From a virus (lineage: Duplodnaviria; Caudoviricetes), in the IMG/VR virus record IMGVR_UViG_3300028563_000022, positions 277 to 64,276 of that record: a DNA stretch of 64,000 nt, one strand, 5' to 3'. The translations under genes and the position numbers were made by a program. A model generated the notes under the pieces. The model searched no databases, had not been told where the DNA came from, and worked only from the letters and a program-made list of their open reading frames with translations. This document shows, one piece after another, positions 31,181 through 57,124 of this stretch (position 1 is its first letter; each line of letters opens with the position of its first letter).

Positions 31181-31358
31181 TCAATTTTGTAGTCAATCAG
31201 AAAGTAGTCAAATTAAAAACTAGTTATATCTGCTAGTTACATGGCCTATCAACATCGCGGGTCATGATATCCTTTGCGTGTATCATCAGGTACTTAGGCC
31301 TCTTTGTTTGTAGTCAATTCTGACGGGCTCAGTGGCTTGGCGGGGATTTTGTAGTCAA
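31177..31358. other. attP region with integrase arm-type sites
   Basis: Five direct GTAGTCAA repeats (31177, 31189, 31204, 31310, 31351) around an AT-rich gap at the integrase 3' end. Confidence 0.7.
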
Positions 31359-32367
31359 TTGTAGGAAGCATGTTGACCGCCTCCAGCTTCGCCCGGGGAA
31401 TGACGTGTTGGTAGGTGTTCAGGGTTTGAGTTGGCTTCTTGTGACCCATCATGTCGGACACTGACCGCAAGTCCGCTCCGTTGCCCAGGGTGTATGTGGC
31501 GAAGTAATGCCGCAAGTCATAGGGCCGCAGGCGCCGGGTGATACCCGCGCGCTTCAGGGTGTTGTGCCAGCCAATCCAGCCTGACTTGGTTATCGGGCGC
31601 CCGAAGTAATGGACGATGTGCCCTTGGCCACCATCCTCATCCCGCCACACGGCCAGAAACCCACGTAACTGATCGGTCAGGGGGATGAATCGCGCGGGTA
31701 TGCCCCGCTTCTTCGCACTGGTGATGCGTAGAATCCCTTCATTGAAGTCCACATCATCCCAGGTCAGGCTGAACAGTTCCTTGCGCCCGGGGCGCACGCC
31801 GGTAAGCGCGGACAGCACCGCCAGGCGGAAGGTACTGGGCTTGGCATGTCGGAGGATAGCATGGAACTCCTCCTGGGTCGGCGGGTAGATGACATCGCGG
31901 TCATCCGGCAGCAGCGTGACACGCACGGGCTTATCCAGGAGGTCAGCGTTGTAAGCATAGTTCAGGATCGACTTCACCAGGGCCAGGTGCTTGTTGATGG
32001 AGACATTCTTGATCTTCGTTTCTCGACAGGCATCCACCACGGCCTGGATGTGCTCTGTGGTGATCTTCTTCAGGAGGACTGTCCCGAGGATTGGCAGAAT
32101 GTATTTGTTCAGGGTGTAGCCATCACCGGACAGGGTGGTGCTGACAAAATCCTTAGAGGAGTAGTATGCCGGGAGGATACTGGCGAAGGTCTTATGGGAA
32201 ACGGTAGGGGGCAGATTGGCCGCGGGCCGATGCTTCTTATTGTACTTGATCTGGGCGAGCTTCAGCTCAACTTCTTCCTCAGAGTCACCCTTTACCGGCT
32301 GCACACGGCCGGTGTGGTCCCGGTACGTTCCGTACCAGCCCTTGCACCCTTTCTTTTGGTAGGCCAT
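31294..32367 (-). CDS. int: Tyrosine integrase
   Basis: TGVR..ELFSLTWDDVDF, YDLRHYFAT, MMGH, LNTYQH catalytic residues. Confidence 0.95.
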   Translation of the reverse strand: MAYQKKGCKGWYGTYRDHTGRVQPVKGDSEEEVELKLAQIKYNKKHRPAANLPPTVSHKTFASILPAYYSSKDFVSTTLSGDGYTLNKYILPILGTVLLKKITTEHIQAVVDACRETKIKNVSINKHLALVKSILNYAYNADLLDKPVRVTLLPDDRDVIYPPTQEEFHAILRHAKPSTFRLAVLSALTGVRPGRKELFSLTWDDVDFNEGILRITSAKKRGIPARFIPLTDQLRGFLAVWRDEDGGQGHIVHYFGRPITKSGWIGWHNTLKRAGITRRLRPYDLRHYFATYTLGNGADLRSVSDMMGHKKPTQTLNTYQHVIPRAKLEAVNMLPTIDYKIPAKPLSPSELTTNKEA

Positions 32368-35665: not shown

Positions 35666-36628
35666 TTAGAAGTCGGAGGACGTGGTGATGACCCCAGCGT
35701 GTGTCTTATATGCGGTGTGCAGGATGTCCACGACCTGGCTGACCAAGAAGACCTTCTCCAGGAAAGCCCCATCAGGATCGTCGGAGTCAGGCTTGACGAT
35801 GGGGGTCTTGAGGCCCGTGATCCCGAGGTCACCCGCGCGGGTGGTCAGGGTGAACTCCGCGCCCGACTCGGCTTCCATGACGATGGTGGCCTTGACCACC
35901 TTGCCATCGGTCAGCGGGGCCGAGAGTGTGGTGAGCTCGATGCTCTCGGGGGCCTCCAGGGTCATGGCCGCCTTGTCAGTGTCCGAGACCACCACGGCCT
36001 TGTTGGGCACGAAGAGGCGCCCACAGGTGAGTTCCATGGTCTTGGTGAACACATCGGTCAGAAAGCCCGAGGCATCGTCCAGGAGGTCGCGCCCATTAGC
36101 CAGGACATCAGGGGTCTGCTCGATGAGCTGGTCGTCAAACATGGCACCCCAGATAGCCTGGAAGAGGTTCTTGACACTTTTGGAAGCGGAGCAGAGCAGT
36201 ACCGTGTTCTCAGTGGGGTCAACCACCACGTCGAACACCGCCGGCGCGGGTTCCATCTTGGCCAGGAGCCGCAGGGTCACTTGATCCTTGATTTCCTGCT
36301 TGCGGTCCTTGGAGATGAACTTCTTGCTGGACCGGGACTGCGAGTCAGCCAGTTCGGCTTCCAGAGCCAGCTTGTACTTCTTCTTGAGCACCGCGCCGGG
36401 GATGCGCCGGGTGTCGATGCGCAGAGAGAAGGCCATGAAGCGGCCCTTCTCCGGCGGCGATTTCTTCCAGGAGTTGTCCATGTAGTCGTCGATGTTGACG
36501 AAGCCGAACGAGAGGGCATCGCTGGTGGTGTCGATGGGGTTGAACGCGGCCTTGAGCAGGGCCTCGGCGTCTGGGGTGTAAGTGGCCTTGTAGACCGTCA
36601 AGGCCGTGGACTTGGACATGAGTGACAT
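35666..36628 (-). CDS. RdgC-like recombination-associated protein
   Basis: F.PID......GFV..DD..D..W....PEKG..MAFSLRIDTRRIP.AVLKK motif. Confidence 0.7.
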   Translation of the reverse strand: MSLMSKSTALTVYKATYTPDAEALLKAAFNPIDTTSDALSFGFVNIDDYMDNSWKKSPPEKGRFMAFSLRIDTRRIPGAVLKKKYKLALEAELADSQSRSSKKFISKDRKQEIKDQVTLRLLAKMEPAPAVFDVVVDPTENTVLLCSASKSVKNLFQAIWGAMFDDQLIEQTPDVLANGRDLLDDASGFLTDVFTKTMELTCGRLFVPNKAVVVSDTDKAAMTLEAPESIELTTLSAPLTDGKVVKATIVMEAESGAEFTLTTRAGDLGITGLKTPIVKPDSDDPDGAFLEKVFLVSQVVDILHTAYKTHAGVITTSSDF

Positions 36629-36687
36629 TGGTTTTCTCCGGTTCGTGTTTCGTTTCGTTGAAGCCTTTGTATTGTTAAACAAGATTT

Positions 36688-37035
36688 CTAGTCAACAGGT
36701 TTTTTCGCTTTGGTTAAAGATTTTCTCTCGTAGGTGTCCTGGCTCACCCCGATGATTTCGGACTTCTGCCGGGCCACTTCCCGGGCTTCGGCCATATCCG
36801 CCACGCAGAGGTCGATGCTTTGCTTCCGGCCCTTGGCCATGAAGTCGTTTACGAACCGAGGGCCGTAGCCACGAATGATGATCCATTTCCCTTGAAGATG
36901 CGCCATGTCCTGGCTGACAGAGCAAGTCAGCCCCGGCAGGATCGGGTTGCCATCAACGCCGATTGTTCCCGTGTGGTGGCCGGGGATGTATGCGGTTATC
37001 TGGACGGCTAGGGCCAGGGCGGTGAAGGCACTCAT
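36688..37035 (-). CDS. 3D-domain-like secreted protein
   Basis: Signal-like N-terminus; ITAY...G.W..I.GYG.R.VND......IDL pattern. Confidence 0.55.
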   Translation of the reverse strand: MSAFTALALAVQITAYIPGHHTGTIGVDGNPILPGLTCSVSQDMAHLQGKWIIIRGYGPRFVNDFMAKGRKQSIDLCVADMAEAREVARQKSEIIGVSQDTYERKSLTKAKKPVD

Positions 37036-37577
37036 CCTGTAGCGTCCTTGTAACTCATGATCCGCCCGGCACATTCCCTTATCTTCCCGTATCCCAGCGA
37101 AACCACCATATCCCAGAGAGTGTACTCATCGAGGTCTGTTTCGCTGGCGTGGTTGGCACTCGGGCCGGGCGTCCAATTCTCGTGGGGGTTGATGCGGATG
37201 CAGATGGCGTGGAGGTCTCGCATGACTTCAAGTTCTGACATGAACCGCATGTCATCCACGACAAGAAAGCATCCGGGCATGAGCTGGCAGCGTTCGGCCA
37301 TCTTGCGGCTCCAGTAGTCTTTATCAGAGGCCCGGCGGATTTCCGTACCCCACCATTGGAGGATTTCCCGGCCAGTCATCCGCCGGTTGCCGATTTGGAA
37401 CTCCTCAGACTTGAACTCCTGGGTGTAAACGTCCCGGAGATACACGTTCAGCAACGCCGCCACTTCCTCTCTCAGAGCATCCGCGAAGGAGATTCTGTGC
37501 CCTGGACGAATCTGGAGCAGTTCATCCGCCAGGGTGGTCTTTCCACAGCCCATTTTCCCGCTGAGCGCAATAATCAT
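37032..37577 (-). CDS. Deoxynucleoside monophosphate kinase
   Basis: GKMGCGKTT P-loop, FADALR, REILQWWGTE.RR, DD.RF..E, H.SE motifs. Confidence 0.9.
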   Translation of the reverse strand: MIIALSGKMGCGKTTLADELLQIRPGHRISFADALREEVAALLNVYLRDVYTQEFKSEEFQIGNRRMTGREILQWWGTEIRRASDKDYWSRKMAERCQLMPGCFLVVDDMRFMSELEVMRDLHAICIRINPHENWTPGPSANHASETDLDEYTLWDMVVSLGYGKIRECAGRIMSYKDATG

Positions 37578-38353
37578 TTGGAATCCTCCTTCACCTGAAT
37601 ATCTTCAAACAGAACCGCCTCATCGCCGCGCTTCAGTTCCTTGAGCAACGGGGTCATGATCCGGCGCATTTCAGGATGGGCGGCCGGGGCCGTGCGCAGC
37701 TTGAAGATGTGGCGCCACTCCCGGGCGTTGGCCGTGACGACAATCTCCGTCTTGGTGGAGTTGGGCAGCACCTCGCGGGCCTGCTCGGGGCGCCAGCCGG
37801 CGTCAAGGAGGCCCAGGTACTTCATCTCATCGTAATTCATAGCGTTCAGCCATGCGTAGTCACCACCGTCTGACACGGCGGCTTCGTGGTCCTCGTTCCA
37901 CTCGTCTCTGCGCAAAGGCCACTCACCCAGCAGGGCCTCGCCGCACCACACCGGCCGGATTACCACCAGCCCCTTCTTCTCGTAGTTCACATATCGGGTG
38001 CTTTCCTGGCTGAAGGCGCAGAGCCGGTGGCGCACGATCTCGTGGGTGACGCCGCGGTTCGTGATGAAGCGCACGGACATCATGGAGTGTTCCAGGACGG
38101 ACTCATGGCCACGCTTGAGGAGCATACAGATGAACTGGCTGGGTGGGTGTAAAGAGCACCCAGAGCAACTGTCATTGTCAGGGTTGGCACCATTTGCAGC
38201 ACAGGAACCCTCAGCCACTACCCCCATAGAGTCTTTCGGCGCGGAACAAGTCCCCTTAGCCTCAGACTTGTAGCAGGTACGTCCAGCCAGTTCGATCAGG
38301 GCCGGGTCGATGTGCATGGCCAGGATTTCATGTGATGGGTCAATGATGAGCAT
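37574..38353 (-). CDS. thyX: FAD-dependent thymidylate synthase
   Basis: GHESVLEH, THEIVRHR...SQESTRY, AR.VLPN, N.REWRH...LR....AHPEM; AGGAGG RBS. Confidence 0.95.
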   Translation of the reverse strand: MLIIDPSHEILAMHIDPALIELAGRTCYKSEAKGTCSAPKDSMGVVAEGSCAANGANPDNDSCSGCSLHPPSQFICMLLKRGHESVLEHSMMSVRFITNRGVTHEIVRHRLCAFSQESTRYVNYEKKGLVVIRPVWCGEALLGEWPLRRDEWNEDHEAAVSDGGDYAWLNAMNYDEMKYLGLLDAGWRPEQAREVLPNSTKTEIVVTANAREWRHIFKLRTAPAAHPEMRRIMTPLLKELKRGDEAVLFEDIQVKEDSK

Positions 38354-49388: not shown

Positions 49389-49656
49389 GATTCTTTTCTC
49401 CGTGTTATAATTTTCTATTCCTGGACCCATTCAACAATGGATGACCGCCTCGTCTCGTCAAGTCCTTTCCAATTCTGGAGCACCATGCCCCGGATGCGGG
49501 CCATACACGGGTCACACGCCGCCGGGTCGGGCACAATGCAGAAGGGGTTCCTACCATTCGACGGCCGCAAGGGTGGGGCAATCGGGGATTCCATGGATGG
49601 CTCCGTGATTTATTGGTTTAATGAATATGGTTAAACACGACAAATGGTCAAGGGGT

Positions 49657-50283
49657 TTAGCACACCACAGCGCGGGCAGCATGGAAAGGCTTGGGGTTCT
49701 TGGCCTTCGTGACCGTGGCCTTCAATTTCTGAACCTGCTCCTTCAGCTCCCTGTTCTCCTCCTCCAGAAGCAGCCGCACCTCGTGTTCCTTCTGGTACAT
49801 CGCCTGCCAGTCGTTGACCTGCTTCGTGATGGGCGCGGTCGCCTTGGCGAAGCGGGTCAGAACAGAGTCAAGGATGGCCGCGGGCACGGGGGACTTGCGC
49901 TTGTCTTGGGCGGACTGGATGGCCGCAAACACCTTGGGCATCTTCTCTTCCCCACAGCGACGGAGCGCCCGGACCACGAAGCCGCTACCGAACTGCTCTG
50001 ACTCCTCGGGGAAGAGAAAGAAGGCCTGGCGCAGGCTATTGTAGAAGGCGAAGGTCAGGTTGAAGCGATCCTTCAGATACGTCGAGAAATCAGAGCCCCT
50101 ATGGCCCGGGCTCTCCTTGAAACGAGAGGTGCGCTCCAGATAGAAGAGGGCACTGATGAACTGGCGCTGTGCGCTGTTCGCGGCCAAGCGGCCAGCTTCC
50201 ACCGCGGTTTCAATTGATTGGATGTCCGAGTCATTGTAAAGAGACTTTAACTCTGTGAGGCTCATTGTCTTCTTGGTATCCAT
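49657..50283 (-). CDS. TIGR-array-adjacent helical/coiled-coil protein of unknown function
   Basis: Starts about 28 nt after the last array unit, co-oriented, GGAG RBS; F..YL..RF helical motif and C-terminal coiled coil. Confidence 0.75.
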   Translation of the reverse strand: MDTKKTMSLTELKSLYNDSDIQSIETAVEAGRLAANSAQRQFISALFYLERTSRFKESPGHRGSDFSTYLKDRFNLTFAFYNSLRQAFFLFPEESEQFGSGFVVRALRRCGEEKMPKVFAAIQSAQDKRKSPVPAAILDSVLTRFAKATAPITKQVNDWQAMYQKEHEVRLLLEEENRELKEQVQKLKATVTKAKNPKPFHAARAVVC

Positions 50284-50311
50284 TTTCTTGCTCCGGTTTG
50301 TTAAAGGGTTT

Positions 50312-50968
50312 TTAGACGCAGGGGCTTTTTGGGTTTAACAGGTTGATTGACTCGCAGTTCGGTTCTAGATTTAAAACGCCAATTTACTCGCAGGGGCACA
50401 CTAGGTTTAACCACAAACCTGACTCGCAACTCCACGCTAGGTTTTACAGCTACCTTTACTCGCAATTTTTGATTAGGTTTAACGCCATGAATTACTCGAA
50501 TGCCTGAAATAAGTTTTAAGGAATGCCTTACTCGCAGTCCCAAAATAAGTTTTACAGTTTGCCTTACTCGCATTCCCAAAATAAGTTTTACGGTTTGCCT
50601 TACTCGCAGTCCCGCTCTAGGTTTAAGGTGTTCAATTACTCGCAAGGTAAGGATAGGCTTAATATCCCGTTTTACTCGCAGTTATCCCGTAGGTTTAATG
50701 CATTGCGTTACTCGCATTTTATACATAGGCTTAAATCCAGCTCTTACTCGCAGCACCCGATTAGGTTTTAAAGGCTTATTTACTCGCACAGAGTTGGTAG
50801 ATTTAATTCCACTCTTTACTCGCAATTTTTGATTAGGTTTAAATTCACCAATTACTCGCATATATCCTTTAGGTTTCAATTACGCAGTTACTCGCACGAC
50901 CACACTAGGTTTAACACCTCGATTTACTCGCACGCACAGATTAGGTTTTATGTCTGTGCTTACTCAAA
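50312..50968 (-). ncRNA. TIGR-like array 1: 18 units of 36 nt (9-nt edge repeat, 9-nt spacer, 9-nt loop repeat, 9-nt spacer)
   Basis: + strand TTACTCGCA every 36 nt from 50312 to 50960, with TAGGTTTAA 18 nt after each; intervening 9-mers variable. Confidence 0.93.
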
Positions 50969-50973
50969 AGTTC

Positions 50974-51831
50974 CTACGCCGCTTTTTCAGCAACGCCTTC
51001 AAAGTACGGGGGCTTGATGTAGTGGTCTTCGCTGTGCCCCATGATCGTGAAGGCGTAGGGCAGCGACACCGGCTTTCCATCGAGTGTCCGTGCCACGGTC
51101 CACATGTGTGCCAAGAACAGGCGCCCGGCCTCATTTCTGGCCATGTTCATGCGGTGCATCTTCGTGGCGTCCGGGTGGGTCTTCAACCGCTTCACAATCC
51201 GGGCGTCATAGAAGTCCCGATACAGGCACTTCTCCGGAGACAGCTTCATGAAGGATGTCCCAATAAGGTAGGCCAAGGTACGGCCGGCGGTAGACCAGTC
51301 GCATACCACTCCAGCTTTACGCTTAGGCTTCCGGCCCTCAGCATCGCAGTGGACGCCCATGAACTTCCACCAGGAGGAGATGCAGGGGAAGTCACGTTCG
51401 ACGACCTTGTACTTCGTGTTGCCCTCACCTTTGGAACTCTTCTGGCAGGTCTCGCACCAGAAGGTGCCTTCCTGCTTTATCAACCCCGTGCCACACTCAC
51501 ACACCGGCACGAACTTGTAGTAGTACATGACAATGAGCTTGGCCCCAAAGGAAGGTCCGATGCCGGGGACCTGCTTCAGCCATTGGGTCCACAAGGGCCA
51601 ATGGATCAGCTCCTTTTCCATGCGCCGGACGAGGGCCCCTTTGACAGCCTCAAGACCCTTCGTGCCATTCTCGCCTCCGAGCAAGAAGTCATTCTTGGGG
51701 TTTACCTCGGGGTTCATCTGGAGAAGGCGTTGCTTGGTCCCGGTGATGAGGTCTGTGATGCCATCGTAAGTGCGCACCATGAACTTCAAGTAATTGATCG
51801 CTTCGATGTTTTCCTGGCTTGTTGGTTTCAT
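50974..51831 (-). CDS. tasA: TasA-like Nop-domain RNA-guided protein (IS110 C-terminal-like, no RuvC/HNH)
   Basis: WLKQVPGIGP...AKLI, S.WWKFMG...KPKRKAG...W, YR.FYD...K, H..NMA....RLFLAHMW...R...G.PV..PY; flanked by 36-nt dual-spacer arrays. Confidence 0.85.
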   Translation of the reverse strand: MKPTSQENIEAINYLKFMVRTYDGITDLITGTKQRLLQMNPEVNPKNDFLLGGENGTKGLEAVKGALVRRMEKELIHWPLWTQWLKQVPGIGPSFGAKLIVMYYYKFVPVCECGTGLIKQEGTFWCETCQKSSKGEGNTKYKVVERDFPCISSWWKFMGVHCDAEGRKPKRKAGVVCDWSTAGRTLAYLIGTSFMKLSPEKCLYRDFYDARIVKRLKTHPDATKMHRMNMARNEAGRLFLAHMWTVARTLDGKPVSLPYAFTIMGHSEDHYIKPPYFEGVAEKAA

Positions 51832-51858
51832 GTTCTGATCCTTTTAATTAGAGGGTTG

Positions 51859-52047
51859 GGGTTCGCACTCTGGGCTTCGGTTTAAAATAGGCAATCGCTC
51901 GCATCGGCTTTATGGGTTTCAGTTATCCGTTTACTCGCAACCCCGTTCTAGATTTAAAGTGTTTTTTTACTCGTACTGGCATCTTAGATTTAAAGGTTAT
52001 CATTACTCGCATTGCTTGCTTGGGTTTGACAAAGCGCCTCACTCTGT
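51859..52047 (-). ncRNA. TIGR-like array 2: 5 units of 36 nt upstream of tas gene
   Basis: Edge repeats at 51859, 51895, 51931, 51967, 52003, (52039); loop repeats incl. TGGGTTTCA (= TGAAACCCA on - strand) at 51913. Confidence 0.88.
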
Positions 52048-52095
52048 TCTTACTTTAAGTTTAACCCCGCCGGCACACCCGCCGCTCACGACCCT

Positions 52096-52125
52096 TAAAT
52101 ATTGTTAAACAAGACTTTCTGTCAA
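52096..52125 (-). promoter_or_regulatory. Putative sigma70 promoter of the TIGR-Tas operon with GTCTTGTTTAAC motif in the spacer
   Basis: - strand TTGACA-GAAAGTCTTGTTTAACAA-TATTTA about 50 nt upstream of array 2; -10 box imperfect. Confidence 0.55.
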
Positions 52126-52247
52126 GCTAATTTCTATAACCAAAGCTACTTTTCTTAAAACAGGGCGCGACATTTTAATAATATCGTTGAATAACGGGTA
52201 TTTATATAACCAAACTTTACAAACCAGGTGATACCACAGCCCGCGTA

Positions 52248-53354
52248 TCATTTTACTAGCCCAAACCTCTTGAGTCTGCCTTGGAGCGCCGGGTAGCTGA
52301 TACCCAAGGCTTCTGCTGTGCGCATCCGGTTCCCCTTGTTGGCTTCTAGGGCTTCAACCAAGAGTGAACGCTTGGCCTCCCACAACTTGGCCTTGGCCAA
52401 GCGTTTTGCTTCCAGAGCCTCGACCGCAGCCGAACGCCTAGCCAAGCGTTCGGCCAAGCGTTTGTGTTTTGCTTCCAGAGCCTCGACCGCAGCCGAACGC
52501 CTAGCCAAGCGTTCGGCCAAGCGTTTGTGTTTTGCTTCCAGAGCCTCGACCGCAGCCGAACGCCTAGCCAAGCGTTTGTGTTTTGCTTCCAGAGCCTCGA
52601 CCTTGGCTAAGCGCATTGCCTCCTGAGCCTGAGCCTCAGCCAAGCGTTTGGCCTCAGTCACCCTGGAATCCGTGGGGGACACGCGCCACCCGGTTGAGGG
52701 GGGCTCAATAAACACCCCACGAATCATGGAATTGTCAGACACTTTACAGGTTTCCACCCGAGACAGGGTTCCTTCTGGGGTAAGAACCAGAGCATAATGG
52801 GTGCCAGAAATAGCCGCAGCGGATGTCTCCAGATTCACCAGGAAGACCCCCCAATCGTTGGTTATCATGGCGAGCTTGGCCATTGGGCCCCAGGAACTCT
52901 GGTACTGCTCACGGGGCAACCAGATATCCTGGGTGTAACTCTCTTCAGTGATGACTTGTCCGTCCTGAGAAACCCCGGCCACCATCTTCTTAATGTAGAT
53001 GAAGCGCATGATCTTTTCCACGGCTTCCTGGCCACCAAGCAGGTCATAACCACGCTGCCGGAACTCCTCTATGGAACACGCGCCAATCTTCATTGCTGCG
53101 CGCTCCATGACATCCTGCCGGGCGGTATATACCCCATCAAAGAGCTGGTAGACATGAGAGCGGGACACACCGAGGTTGGTGGCCATGTCAGGAGCTTTCA
53201 GTCCTTTCTCCATGGCGACAAAAGAGAGCTGCGCGAGCCACGCGACATAGGCCGGGTCTTTGATCCGCGGATTCTCCTCAATAACCTTCAAAAACGCTTC
53301 GTACCACTCCGAGTGGAGCTGGTCCGGCGTCCGTCCTTTTCTCTTGATCTTCAT
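52248..53354 (-). CDS. Repressor-like regulator: XRE-type HTH, repeat coiled coil, C-terminal Fis-type HTH
   Basis: DMATNLGVSRSHVYQLFDG; LVEALEANKGNRMRTAEALGISYPAL..RLKRFG; divergent from cro-like gene; GAGGAG RBS. Confidence 0.7.
   Translation of the reverse strand: MKIKRKGRTPDQLHSEWYEAFLKVIEENPRIKDPAYVAWLAQLSFVAMEKGLKAPDMATNLGVSRSHVYQLFDGVYTARQDVMERAAMKIGACSIEEFRQRGYDLLGGQEAVEKIMRFIYIKKMVAGVSQDGQVITEESYTQDIWLPREQYQSSWGPMAKLAMITNDWGVFLVNLETSAAAISGTHYALVLTPEGTLSRVETCKVSDNSMIRGVFIEPPSTGWRVSPTDSRVTEAKRLAEAQAQEAMRLAKVEALEAKHKRLARRSAAVEALEAKHKRLAERLARRSAAVEALEAKHKRLAERLARRSAAVEALEAKRLAKAKLWEAKRSLLVEALEANKGNRMRTAEALGISYPALQGRLKRFGLVK
52400..52605. repeat. In-frame tandem repeat (63, 63, 51 bp periods) encoding EALEAKHKRLAERLARRSAAV
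   Basis: GCTTCCAGAGCCTCGACC recurs at 52408, 52471, 52534, 52585. Confidence 0.92.
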
Positions 53355-53523
53355 GGCTTGTCTCCTCGGGAAATTAAAGTTGACACTCGCATGTGTTCGG
53401 CCCCTCATTATCATTATTTTTGCTCCTGTCAAACAAAAAGTTTCTTTTTAGGAGACAAAATTTGTGTTGTTTCGCAATAATTTTTAGTGACAACGATCTT
53501 GACTGGGGGTAGGTATCCTCCTC

Positions 53524-57082: not shown

Positions 57083-57124
57083 GAGCCCCGACTCGTTTTT
57101 GAACGAGTCGGGGTTTCGGTTTTC
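57083..57124. terminator. Hairpin terminator between convergent rusA and helicase genes
   Basis: CCCCGACTCGTT-TTTG-AACGAGTCGGGG with T-rich 3' and A-rich 5' flanks. Confidence 0.7.

Follow-up and report, generated by a model that had tools for sequence, protein, structure and literature searches.

A probable dual-repeat TIGR-TasA locus with a conserved small partner gene in a temperate soil phage

Dual-repeat TIGR systems are described in Faure 2025 (PMC12045711) as arrays in which two distinct repeats of 8-12 nucleotides (nt) alternate, separated by spacers of ~9 nt, in units of 36 nt. Their edge and loop repeats start with box D (UG) and end with box C (CCA), or carry variants of these boxes that covary between both repeats (Faure 2025, PMC12045711). 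About 20,000 tas loci and 6,685 arrays have been catalogued, and the published catalogue of the dual-repeat kind numbers 4,126 arrays. Faure 2025 (PMC12045711) further describes a gene, tasParB, whose ParB homology was detected by HHpred. The gene forms an operon with tasA, and dual-repeat arrays are found ahead of the two genes, behind them or between them. Here, we report a locus of this appearance in 64,000 nt of DNA from a virus (Duplodnaviria; Caudoviricetes), positions 277 to 64,276 of IMG/VR record IMGVR_UViG_3300028563_000022. The record consists of one virus contig, 64,276 bp long; the whole 64,000-nt stretch is hereafter called the window, and all coordinates refer to it.

With a probability of roughly 0.87, we read the locus as the dual-repeat TIGR-TasA system of a temperate phage and assign it to the subtype whose tasA shares an operon with a small ParB-like gene. 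The reading draws on the anatomy of the arrays, on the relationship of TasA to known Tas proteins in sequence and fold, on its lack of a nuclease domain, and on a processing dyad, the phage context and a conserved partner gene, each described below. Transcription, processing, DNA binding and repression by this system are predicted by analogy with other Tas proteins.

Two guide arrays around tasA

When the minus strand of 49500-52300 was read and cut in 36-nt register, units were found on both sides of a co-oriented gene for a 285-aa protein (50974..51831, minus strand), here named tasA. The upstream TIGR array (51864..52043, minus strand; U1-U5, 5 x 36 nt) is in the 5' leader of tasA. The downstream array (50317..50964, minus strand; D1-D18, 18 x 36 nt) fills the space between the tasA stop and the start of a 208-aa gene. 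On the minus strand, each of the 23 units consists of AGTAA, nine variable bases, TTAAACCTA, nine variable bases and TGCG; that is, an edge repeat TGCGAGTAA and a loop repeat TTAAACCTA alternate with two variable 9-nt blocks, as in a dual-repeat array. Ten of the 18 fixed columns (A1, G2, A5, T15, A17, A18, A23, T33, C35 and G36) are invariant in 23/23 units, and all 18 spacer columns vary. Searching the 64-kb window with the unit pattern (spacers as N, up to 3 mismatches) returned 23 sites, every one of them in an array; 100 shuffles gave an expectation of 0.01, and none came near 23. A preliminary description of the window, made from the sequence alone, had reported strict 36-nt units, 18 and 5 in number, on the minus strand around a co-oriented 285-aa gene, and had recognized in them the TIGR-Tas layout of two short repeats and two 9-nt spacers. 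Both statements hold, the latter by the definition of Faure 2025. Its array coordinates, 50312-50968 and 51859-52047, are wider than ours since half edge repeats were included: degenerate half edge repeats flank the upstream array out to 51859 and 52047, and those of the downstream array extend to 50312 and 50968.

The arrays abut the genes closely. At its 3' end the upstream array passes through a truncated edge (TGCG, AACCC) and GGA into the tasA ATG at 51831; the downstream array begins (TTTG/AGTAA) six bases past the tasA stop and ends (TGCG/TCTAA) 29 nt ahead of the ATG of the 208-aa gene at 50283. Of the five upstream units, four are at 2-3 mismatches from the unit pattern and the remaining one is at 1. 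In RNA form, edge and loop repeats all begin with U and end with A (23/23 each); the second base is G in 21/23 edges and mostly U or A in the loop, and the repeat 3' ends are UAA and CUA. The repeats of relatives are TGCGAGCCA and TGAAACCCA, with TG...CCA in both. An Rfam search of the locus gave two chance-level rows and no matching family. Half of every unit varies, which is why Tandem Repeats Finder reported the near-duplicate units D11-D13 alone.

Periodic repeats with variable inserts might equally be sought in a CRISPR array or in repetitive coding sequence, and open reading frames (ORFs) of 114 and 65 aa do run through parts of the array because 36 nt equals 12 codons. However, a CRISPR array has one repeat of 25-36 nt, whereas here two distinct 9-nt repeats are combined with 9-nt spacers, and no cas family was found among the 43 window proteins scanned. 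The ORFs, for their part, cover portions of the array only, and the variation falls into 9-nt blocks rather than by codon position. Array anatomy thus rules out either identity for all practical purposes.

For the family context, 52 related viral loci were fetched with the Tas alignment. A periodic array adjoins tas in 50/52 of them, 47 having a period of 36 nt and 3 one of 37 nt (L039, L040 and L049), and an array lies upstream of tas in 15/52. As for variation of the arrays themselves, contigs from four DNA runs that contain the locus agree on the arrays, and wherever these are covered, units are neither gained nor lost. In one rhizosphere run, a C>A change at 50849 alters spacer A of D4, as seen in a single low-depth contig.

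Several units resemble one another. D11, D12 and D13 (50497-50604, minus strand) are near-duplicates, spacer B ATCAAAAAT is common to D4 (50821-50856) and D14 (50461-50496), and a motif (A)ACGG(G)ATAAC is an overlap of spacer B of D8, spacer A of D9 (50641-50712) and spacer A of U4 (51900-51935). Such related spacers suggest unit duplication, or several guides against variants of one target. A degenerate sixth unit is visible at 52048-52083 (minus strand), between U1 and the promoter candidate described below; it holds a loop-like GTTAAACTT and an out-of-register AGTAA, and may be a decayed leader-proximal unit.

A nuclease-less TasA and a conserved 208-aa partner

The 285-aa protein has a solo coiled-coil plus Nop domain. 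It had no match in a Pfam scan at E<=1, and in PHROGs it matched phrog_4285, 'transposase' (E 1.2e-19). The NCBIfam model 'TIGR-Tas system RNA-guided endonuclease' (TIGR_Tas_endo, NF052498) matched its C-terminal half (E 7.4e-22). Against PDB sequences, phmmer with the protein alone found 9mty_A at E 1.8e-21, and a profile of 28 homologues found the same chain, TasR, at E 2.6e-42 and TasH chains at E 4.5e-14; PDB 9mty is entitled 'TIGR-TasR in complex with tigRNA and target DNA'. An AlphaFold2 model of the protein, computed from the homologue alignment (mean predicted local distance difference test score (pLDDT) 87.4, predicted template modelling score 0.85) retrieved TasR or TasH chains as all of the top 10 Foldseek matches in PDB, followed by the IS110-family recombinases ISCro4 and IS621. 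In VIA-align, residues 12-278 of the model superposed on TasR 111-322 (Z 21.1, root-mean-square deviation 2.7 A, 200 residues) and residues 3-280 on TasH 59-309 (Z 19.4); IS621 and ISCro4 followed at Z 15.0-15.4 and archaeal Nop5 at Z 6.1. The IS110-related Nop protein of the preliminary description, for which it had proposed a profile and structure check, is therefore borne out by sequence and fold homology to TasR, TasH and IS110 recombinases, while its wording 'TIGR-Tas-like', correct as to kinship, was too cautious for what is a plain family member.

Neither the superposition, the Pfam scan nor the model shows anything that corresponds to RuvC of TasR or HNH of TasH. The alignments start at TasR 111 and TasH 59, and residues 1-104 of the model are all helical, in agreement with the earlier statement that no N-terminal RuvC or HNH domain is present. 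A search for longer fused relatives found none, which is weak evidence. Because the model superposes on TasR and TasH with no counterpart of the RuvC or HNH part, the protein is the coiled-coil plus Nop part of a Tas, that is, a nuclease-less TasA in the sense of Faure 2025.

Two further features of TasA are conserved. A beta-rich insert at 105-147 contains C111, C113, C126 and C129, invariant in 28/28 homologues. Because this Cys4 insert has no His or Asp motif, we read it, from its sequence, as a structural zinc ribbon; the word 'zinc' is absent from the main text of Xu 2026. The second feature concerns guide processing. SpTasH cuts pre-tigRNA with Y289 and H296 (PMC13421893), and a Tyr/His processing dyad is described as a mark of dual-repeat systems (Xu 2026 preprint). 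Y259 and H266 of TasA align to these two residues with the same 7-residue spacing. The Tyr259 column holds Tyr in 25/28 homologues and Trp in 3, and the His266 column holds His in 21/28, with the His one residue later in the other 7.

The 208-aa gene (49657..50283, minus strand), which follows the downstream array, lay inside the coordinates of the preliminary description, which gave a correct account of the arrays and the Tas gene and overlooked this conserved partner. By tblastn, 44 of the 52 viral loci have a homologue. In 41 of these it comes right after tas in the same orientation, with an array between both genes in 37/41 and another array past the partner homologue in 24/41; in one of the 37-nt-period relatives (L049) it is on the opposite strand. 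A representative library contained 300 relatives at E<=0.001. The partner model (pLDDT 94.6) is all-helical, with a helical domain at ~34-146 and a long C-terminal helix at 159-195, and lacks an alpha/beta CTPase-type N-terminal domain. A TasParB would be expected to carry a dimerization region at its C-terminus. With residues 34-146, VIA-align placed a ParB DNA-binding domain first (6s6h_B, Z 6.0), and KorB (Z 5.0) and Spo0J (Z 4.8) were in the top twelve; the bar of the tool is 8. Foldseek against PDB gave no match at E<=0.001; SopB came tenth (E 3.5). Searches of Pfam, NCBIfam, PHROGs and PDB profiles found no family and no ParB, merely coiled-coil-type noise, which in Pfam fell on the C-terminal helix region. 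Atlas leads were DUF3102 and Plasmid_parti_N; in BFVD, unnamed phage proteins matched best (E 7.8e-3), and DUF3102 proteins followed in places 12 and 14. The gene is probably the published 'TasParB' or a close analogue, and our literature searches found nothing further on tasParB.

The linkage of this partner to arrays in 44/52 loci, with arrays on both sides of it in 24/41, and the ParB, KorB and Spo0J domains as its best structural matches could also be taken to mean that the arrays are, additionally or mainly, DNA repeats bound by the ParB-like protein, much as SopB binds the tandem 43-bp repeats of sopC. They would then serve in partition or silencing, or regulate transcription of the arrays. 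However, the structural matches are weak (Z 4.8-6.0, below the bar of 8), neither Foldseek, Pfam nor the PDB profile search returned a ParB, and the repeats lack an inverted repeat of the ParB-bound kind. The phage, moreover, needs no partition system because it has an integrase, and homologous arrays are RNA-guide arrays by experiment, as reported in Faure 2025 (PMC12045711). We consider a role of the arrays as ParB-bound repeats, be it additional or primary, quite unlikely.

A conserved partner with no assigned activity would also suit a scheme in which DNA-bound TasA recruits a nuclease or other effector, be it the 208-aa protein or a host enzyme, leading to destruction or recombination of the target; integrase assistance and 'additional functional diversity' are raised in Faure 2025 (PMC12045711). 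Against this, the partner is all-helical and has no nuclease-like fold or family match, and TasA proteins of other clades repress in reporter assays by themselves (Xu 2026 preprint). Recruitment of this sort appears very unlikely, and we retain TasA as a protein that would act at its target without cutting.

Working model and guide targets

A sigma-70-like promoter candidate (TTGACA, 16 nt, AATATT; 10/12 consensus) lies upstream of the first array at 52098..52125 on the minus strand. The promoter proposed earlier at about 52096-52125 thus coincides with an actual sigma-70-like site; however, the region is not enriched in sites of this kind (4 versus 2.7 expected), and therefore it is a plausible candidate only. 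No terminator-like sites were found between the genes of the locus. Because of this, the promoter candidate and the tight spacing of the parts, the sequence suggests that one transcript spans array U, tasA, array D and the 208-aa gene.

In the model that we favor, this transcript would start at the candidate near 52125 and run through all four parts. TasA dimers, expected to form through the coiled-coil domain or, in the ParB-linked clade, head-to-head, would bind the edge and loop repeats, and the Tyr259/His266 dyad would cut the precursor in the edge repeats, releasing up to 23 tigRNAs of 36 nt with the composition AGUAA-spacer A-UUAAACCUA-spacer B-UGCG. The same cuts would separate the tasA and partner mRNAs from each other and from the leader. 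A TasA-tigRNA particle would then bind DNA that matches its two 9-nt spacers and, because TasA has no nuclease, would block transcription or replication at the target instead of cutting it. The preliminary description had likewise inferred one transcript, about 23 guide RNAs and binding without cleavage, for example to repress host, competitor or own genes; such binding and repression of transcription have since been reported for other TasA proteins (Xu 2026 preprint). The precedent is MbTasA, for which reporter repression, reversibility and binding in electrophoretic mobility shift assays are reported (Xu 2026 preprint).

The testable defining traits of dual-repeat TIGR-TasA are present at this locus with one exception. 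Several results weigh against the reading as a whole. The NF052498 match scores 78.4 bits, below the curated cut-off of 100. The repeat ends (edge UGCGAGUAA, loop UUAAACCUA) deviate from the published UG...CCA box motifs, and edge and loop repeats match each other imperfectly. The locus occurs in eight sequencing runs, and none of these is an RNA run. Repression by TasA is known from MbTasA, which is of the stem-loop type and belongs to another clade than the dual-repeat, ParB-linked proteins (Xu 2026 preprint), and ParB-linked TasA is predicted to form a different, 'head-to-head' dimer (Faure 2025, PMC12045711). Two target searches point the same way. They used a rule derived from the text of Faure 2025, under which A and B pair with opposite strands of adjacent 9-bp segments. 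One target strand contains spacer A and then, after 0-2 bp, spacer B in reverse complement; the published basis for this geometry is the 8-nt 3' overhangs and the 'C - 5' rule (Faure 2025, PMC12045711). Under this arrangement and its mirror, the 23 guides had no opposite-strand target in their own genome at <=2 mismatches. A scan of IMG/VR with one degenerate D11/D12 pattern found 14 opposite-strand stretches, 11 of them independent, for a rough expectation of ~15.

Opposite-strand self-matches of the 23 guides at 3 mismatches equaled the counts of re-paired controls. We extended the survey to 17 phage genomes (241 units, ~0.88 Mb; an 18th record had no parsable units) with 200 re-pairings of the spacers. 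The two opposite-strand arrangements gave 0/0/4 and 0/0/6 hits at <=0/1/2 mismatches, compared to 0.06/0.25/3.99 and 0/0/4.71 in the re-pairing controls, so the real counts are at chance. Under the published rule, these phages do not aim guides at their own genomes. Because the phage itself holds no target under the opposite-strand rule, its guides are probably directed at the host or at competing mobile elements. Sharing of spacers among relatives was also at chance level, with 6 pairs alike at >=8/9 positions versus 6.8 expected, and 1 exact pair versus 0.26. According to the Xu 2026 preprint, natural TIGR targets cannot yet be determined, and our literature searches found no paper that reports any.

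Four of the 14 opposite-strand stretches from IMG/VR belong to one unrelated, AT-rich phage with a perfect D12 site (L072, L073, L076 and L082). In this phage (e.g. L073:5425-5442), the D12 target is ungapped, and an exact copy of U4 spacer A lies 13 nt upstream on the other strand. A test of flanks against background was unremarkable for this site, which is indistinguishable from chance.

A different kind of match was found for D1, the first unit after the tasA stop (50929..50964, minus strand), whose spacers, GCACAGACA and ATCTGTGCG, are mutually complementary over 7 bp. The self-match scan covered 23 guides in 4 arrangements with 3 gaps on 2 strands of 64 kb. Spacer A followed directly by spacer B of D1 equals 38466-38483 on the minus strand, 18/18, contiguous and on the same strand; by our own estimate, the chance of any perfect hit in the scan is ~5e-4. 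These 18 nt are the center of an intergenic hairpin (38462..38488, minus strand; 12-bp stem, 3-nt loop) between a DUF1937 gene and thyX, and the center of the match is within half a base of the hairpin axis. The hairpin folds at -25.1 kcal/mol (z -6.15) and is one of four of such kind in the window. The other perfect 12-bp-stem hairpins, with loops of 1-4 nt, are at 43073-43097, 43474-43499 and 57086-57113, and none of them matches any spacer. The 18-mer is absent from other IMG/VR contigs.

This match raises the question of whether the ParB-linked TasA clade follows another guide rule, in which the two spacers of a unit form one contiguous same-strand stretch of 18 nt, and D1 addresses, or derives from, the hairpin upstream of thyX (self-regulation or a trace of acquisition). 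In the 17 genomes, where opposite-strand arrangements are at chance, same-strand A.B matches at <=0/1/2 mismatches numbered 1/2/9 versus 0/0.08/3.36 expected, and 0/200 re-pairings reached the real counts. Self-complementary spacer pairs (stem >=6) occur in 8/540 units versus 2.0 expected, and in one case the pair is a first unit with the geometry of D1. An unusual head-to-head dimer is, moreover, predicted for ParB-linked TasA in Faure 2025 (PMC12045711). Yet the enrichment is weak when this phage is left aside (0/1/8 versus 0/0.095/3.3, reached by 9.5% and 3% of controls), and in all Tas complexes solved so far, as published, each of the two spacers pairs with a different strand. None of the remaining 22 guides of the phage has a same-strand self-match at <=2 mismatches, and the D11/D12 same-strand pattern in IMG/VR (8 stretches, 6 independent) was near the rough expectation of ~15, a chance level. 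Another unit like D1, in L044, lacks a match in its contig, which is 30% complete. With respect to the coding strand, no consistent bias was seen among the nine same-strand hits. The reverse order, B.A within a unit, is at chance (0/1/7 versus 0/0.2/4.6), as is B(i).A(i+1) across the edge repeat. We hold a separate same-strand rule to be unlikely.

The D1 match itself allows several explanations. It could be a rare coincidence, or the D1 pair could form an RNA hairpin with a local role, such as stabilizing the 3' end of the tasA message. That the match is a trace of unit making, or else reflects another way of binding, to nucleic acid that is single-stranded or forms a hairpin, is improbable even when both are taken jointly. 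A record of a related provirus (L056; G002:C1:12100-12117) contains a unit, GCGGCCAAA / TCGGGCATG, that matches its own genome with 1 mismatch as B then A on one strand.

Phage setting and relation to known systems

Genes in the window include those for terminase, portal, protease, major capsid and tape measure proteins, integrase (31294-32367), DNA polymerase, helicase and primase-polymerase, among others, and the window is the near-complete genome of a temperate soil phage. Near-identical DNA is present in several rhizosphere metagenome runs. The closest phage terminases, of Paraburkholderia, Pseudomonas and Moraxella phages, are 45-49% identical. In bacterial assemblies, five relatives of tasA were found, all in drafts or metagenome-assembled genomes (Smithella, Deltaproteobacteria, Desulfobacteraceae and Pseudomonadota).

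Just upstream of the promoter candidate, an ORF of 394 aa (52248-53432, minus strand) encodes a protein with an N-terminal helix-turn-helix (HTH) domain and a C-terminal Fis-type HTH_8 domain. Inside this gene, 52403-52576 is a perfect 63-bp tandem repeat (2.8 copies, 100% identical) that codes for helical segments of 21 aa, likewise repeated. Its position beside tas is not a conserved feature of the 52 relatives, as far as this gene is concerned. Between the integrase gene and the TIGR locus, 35666-44328 (minus strand) holds a cluster of nucleotide-metabolism and DNA-modification genes: ThyX (PF02511), a deoxynucleoside monophosphate kinase, a radical-SAM protein (phrog_9298), DUF1937, a DNA polymerase and a methyltransferase/primase-like protein. 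This cluster may point to modified DNA.

Earlier publications already describe flanking arrays, a phage location, a ParB-like partner and TasA as a repressor (Faure 2025; Xu 2026 preprint). What the locus offers is a well-resolved example, in which a near-complete temperate phage genome contains 23 guides, arrays on both sides of tasA and a ParB-like partner. It bears on the natural targets and the origin of TIGR spacers, both of which are called open in the literature (Xu 2026; Faure 2025, PMC12045711). Two outcomes are of use here: no self-targeting under the published rule, and a same-strand self-match at a hairpin with a modest family-wide excess. If true, the reading that ties D1 to the hairpin would provide the first natural protospacer for a TIGR system. 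The match would then reveal either the making of spacers, in which the loop repeat splits an 18-mer, or a further way of targeting, directed at nucleic acid that is single-stranded or folded into a hairpin.

Among known systems, one comparison is with the archaeal box C/D small ribonucleoprotein (Nop5, PDB 3id5), with which the locus has in common the Nop fold, two guide segments per RNA and a coiled-coil dimer that holds them. In contrast to that particle, there are no fibrillarin or L7Ae partners here, and the target of a Tas system is DNA rather than rRNA. The bridge-RNA recombinases of the IS110 family (IS621, ISCro4) have the same RNA-binding Nop-like domain, and both PHROGs and PDB depositors label Tas-like proteins 'transposase'. 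Unlike those recombinases, the locus has no DEDD/RuvC domain, no single bridge RNA and no transposon ends, and has a guide array instead.

TaTasR (PDB 9mty) and SpTasH (9w03, 9w04 and 21kl) likewise have a coiled-coil plus Nop architecture and 36-nt dual-repeat guides, and the Tyr/His loop of TasH is kept in the phage protein. TasA differs from them in lacking the RuvC (TasR 1-110) and HNH (TasH 1-58) parts, so that no cleavage is expected, and in its extra Cys4 zinc ribbon, as we read it, at 105-147. MbTasA and PlTasA (Xu 2026 and Guan 2026 preprints) are likewise nuclease-less Tas proteins, and RNA-guided DNA binding with reversible repression is described for MbTasA. Theirs, as the preprints describe them, are stem-loop tigRNAs without the Tyr/His loop, whereas here dual-repeat guides go with the loop.

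The nearest relatives are the dual-repeat TIGR-TasA systems with tasParB (Faure 2025, PMC12045711). The repeats here end in UAA and CUA, compared to the published CCA. In common with those systems, the locus has 36-nt units of edge, spacer A, loop and spacer B, a solo Nop Tas and a location in a phage, and its arrays likewise precede tasA and separate it from a small ParB-like gene.

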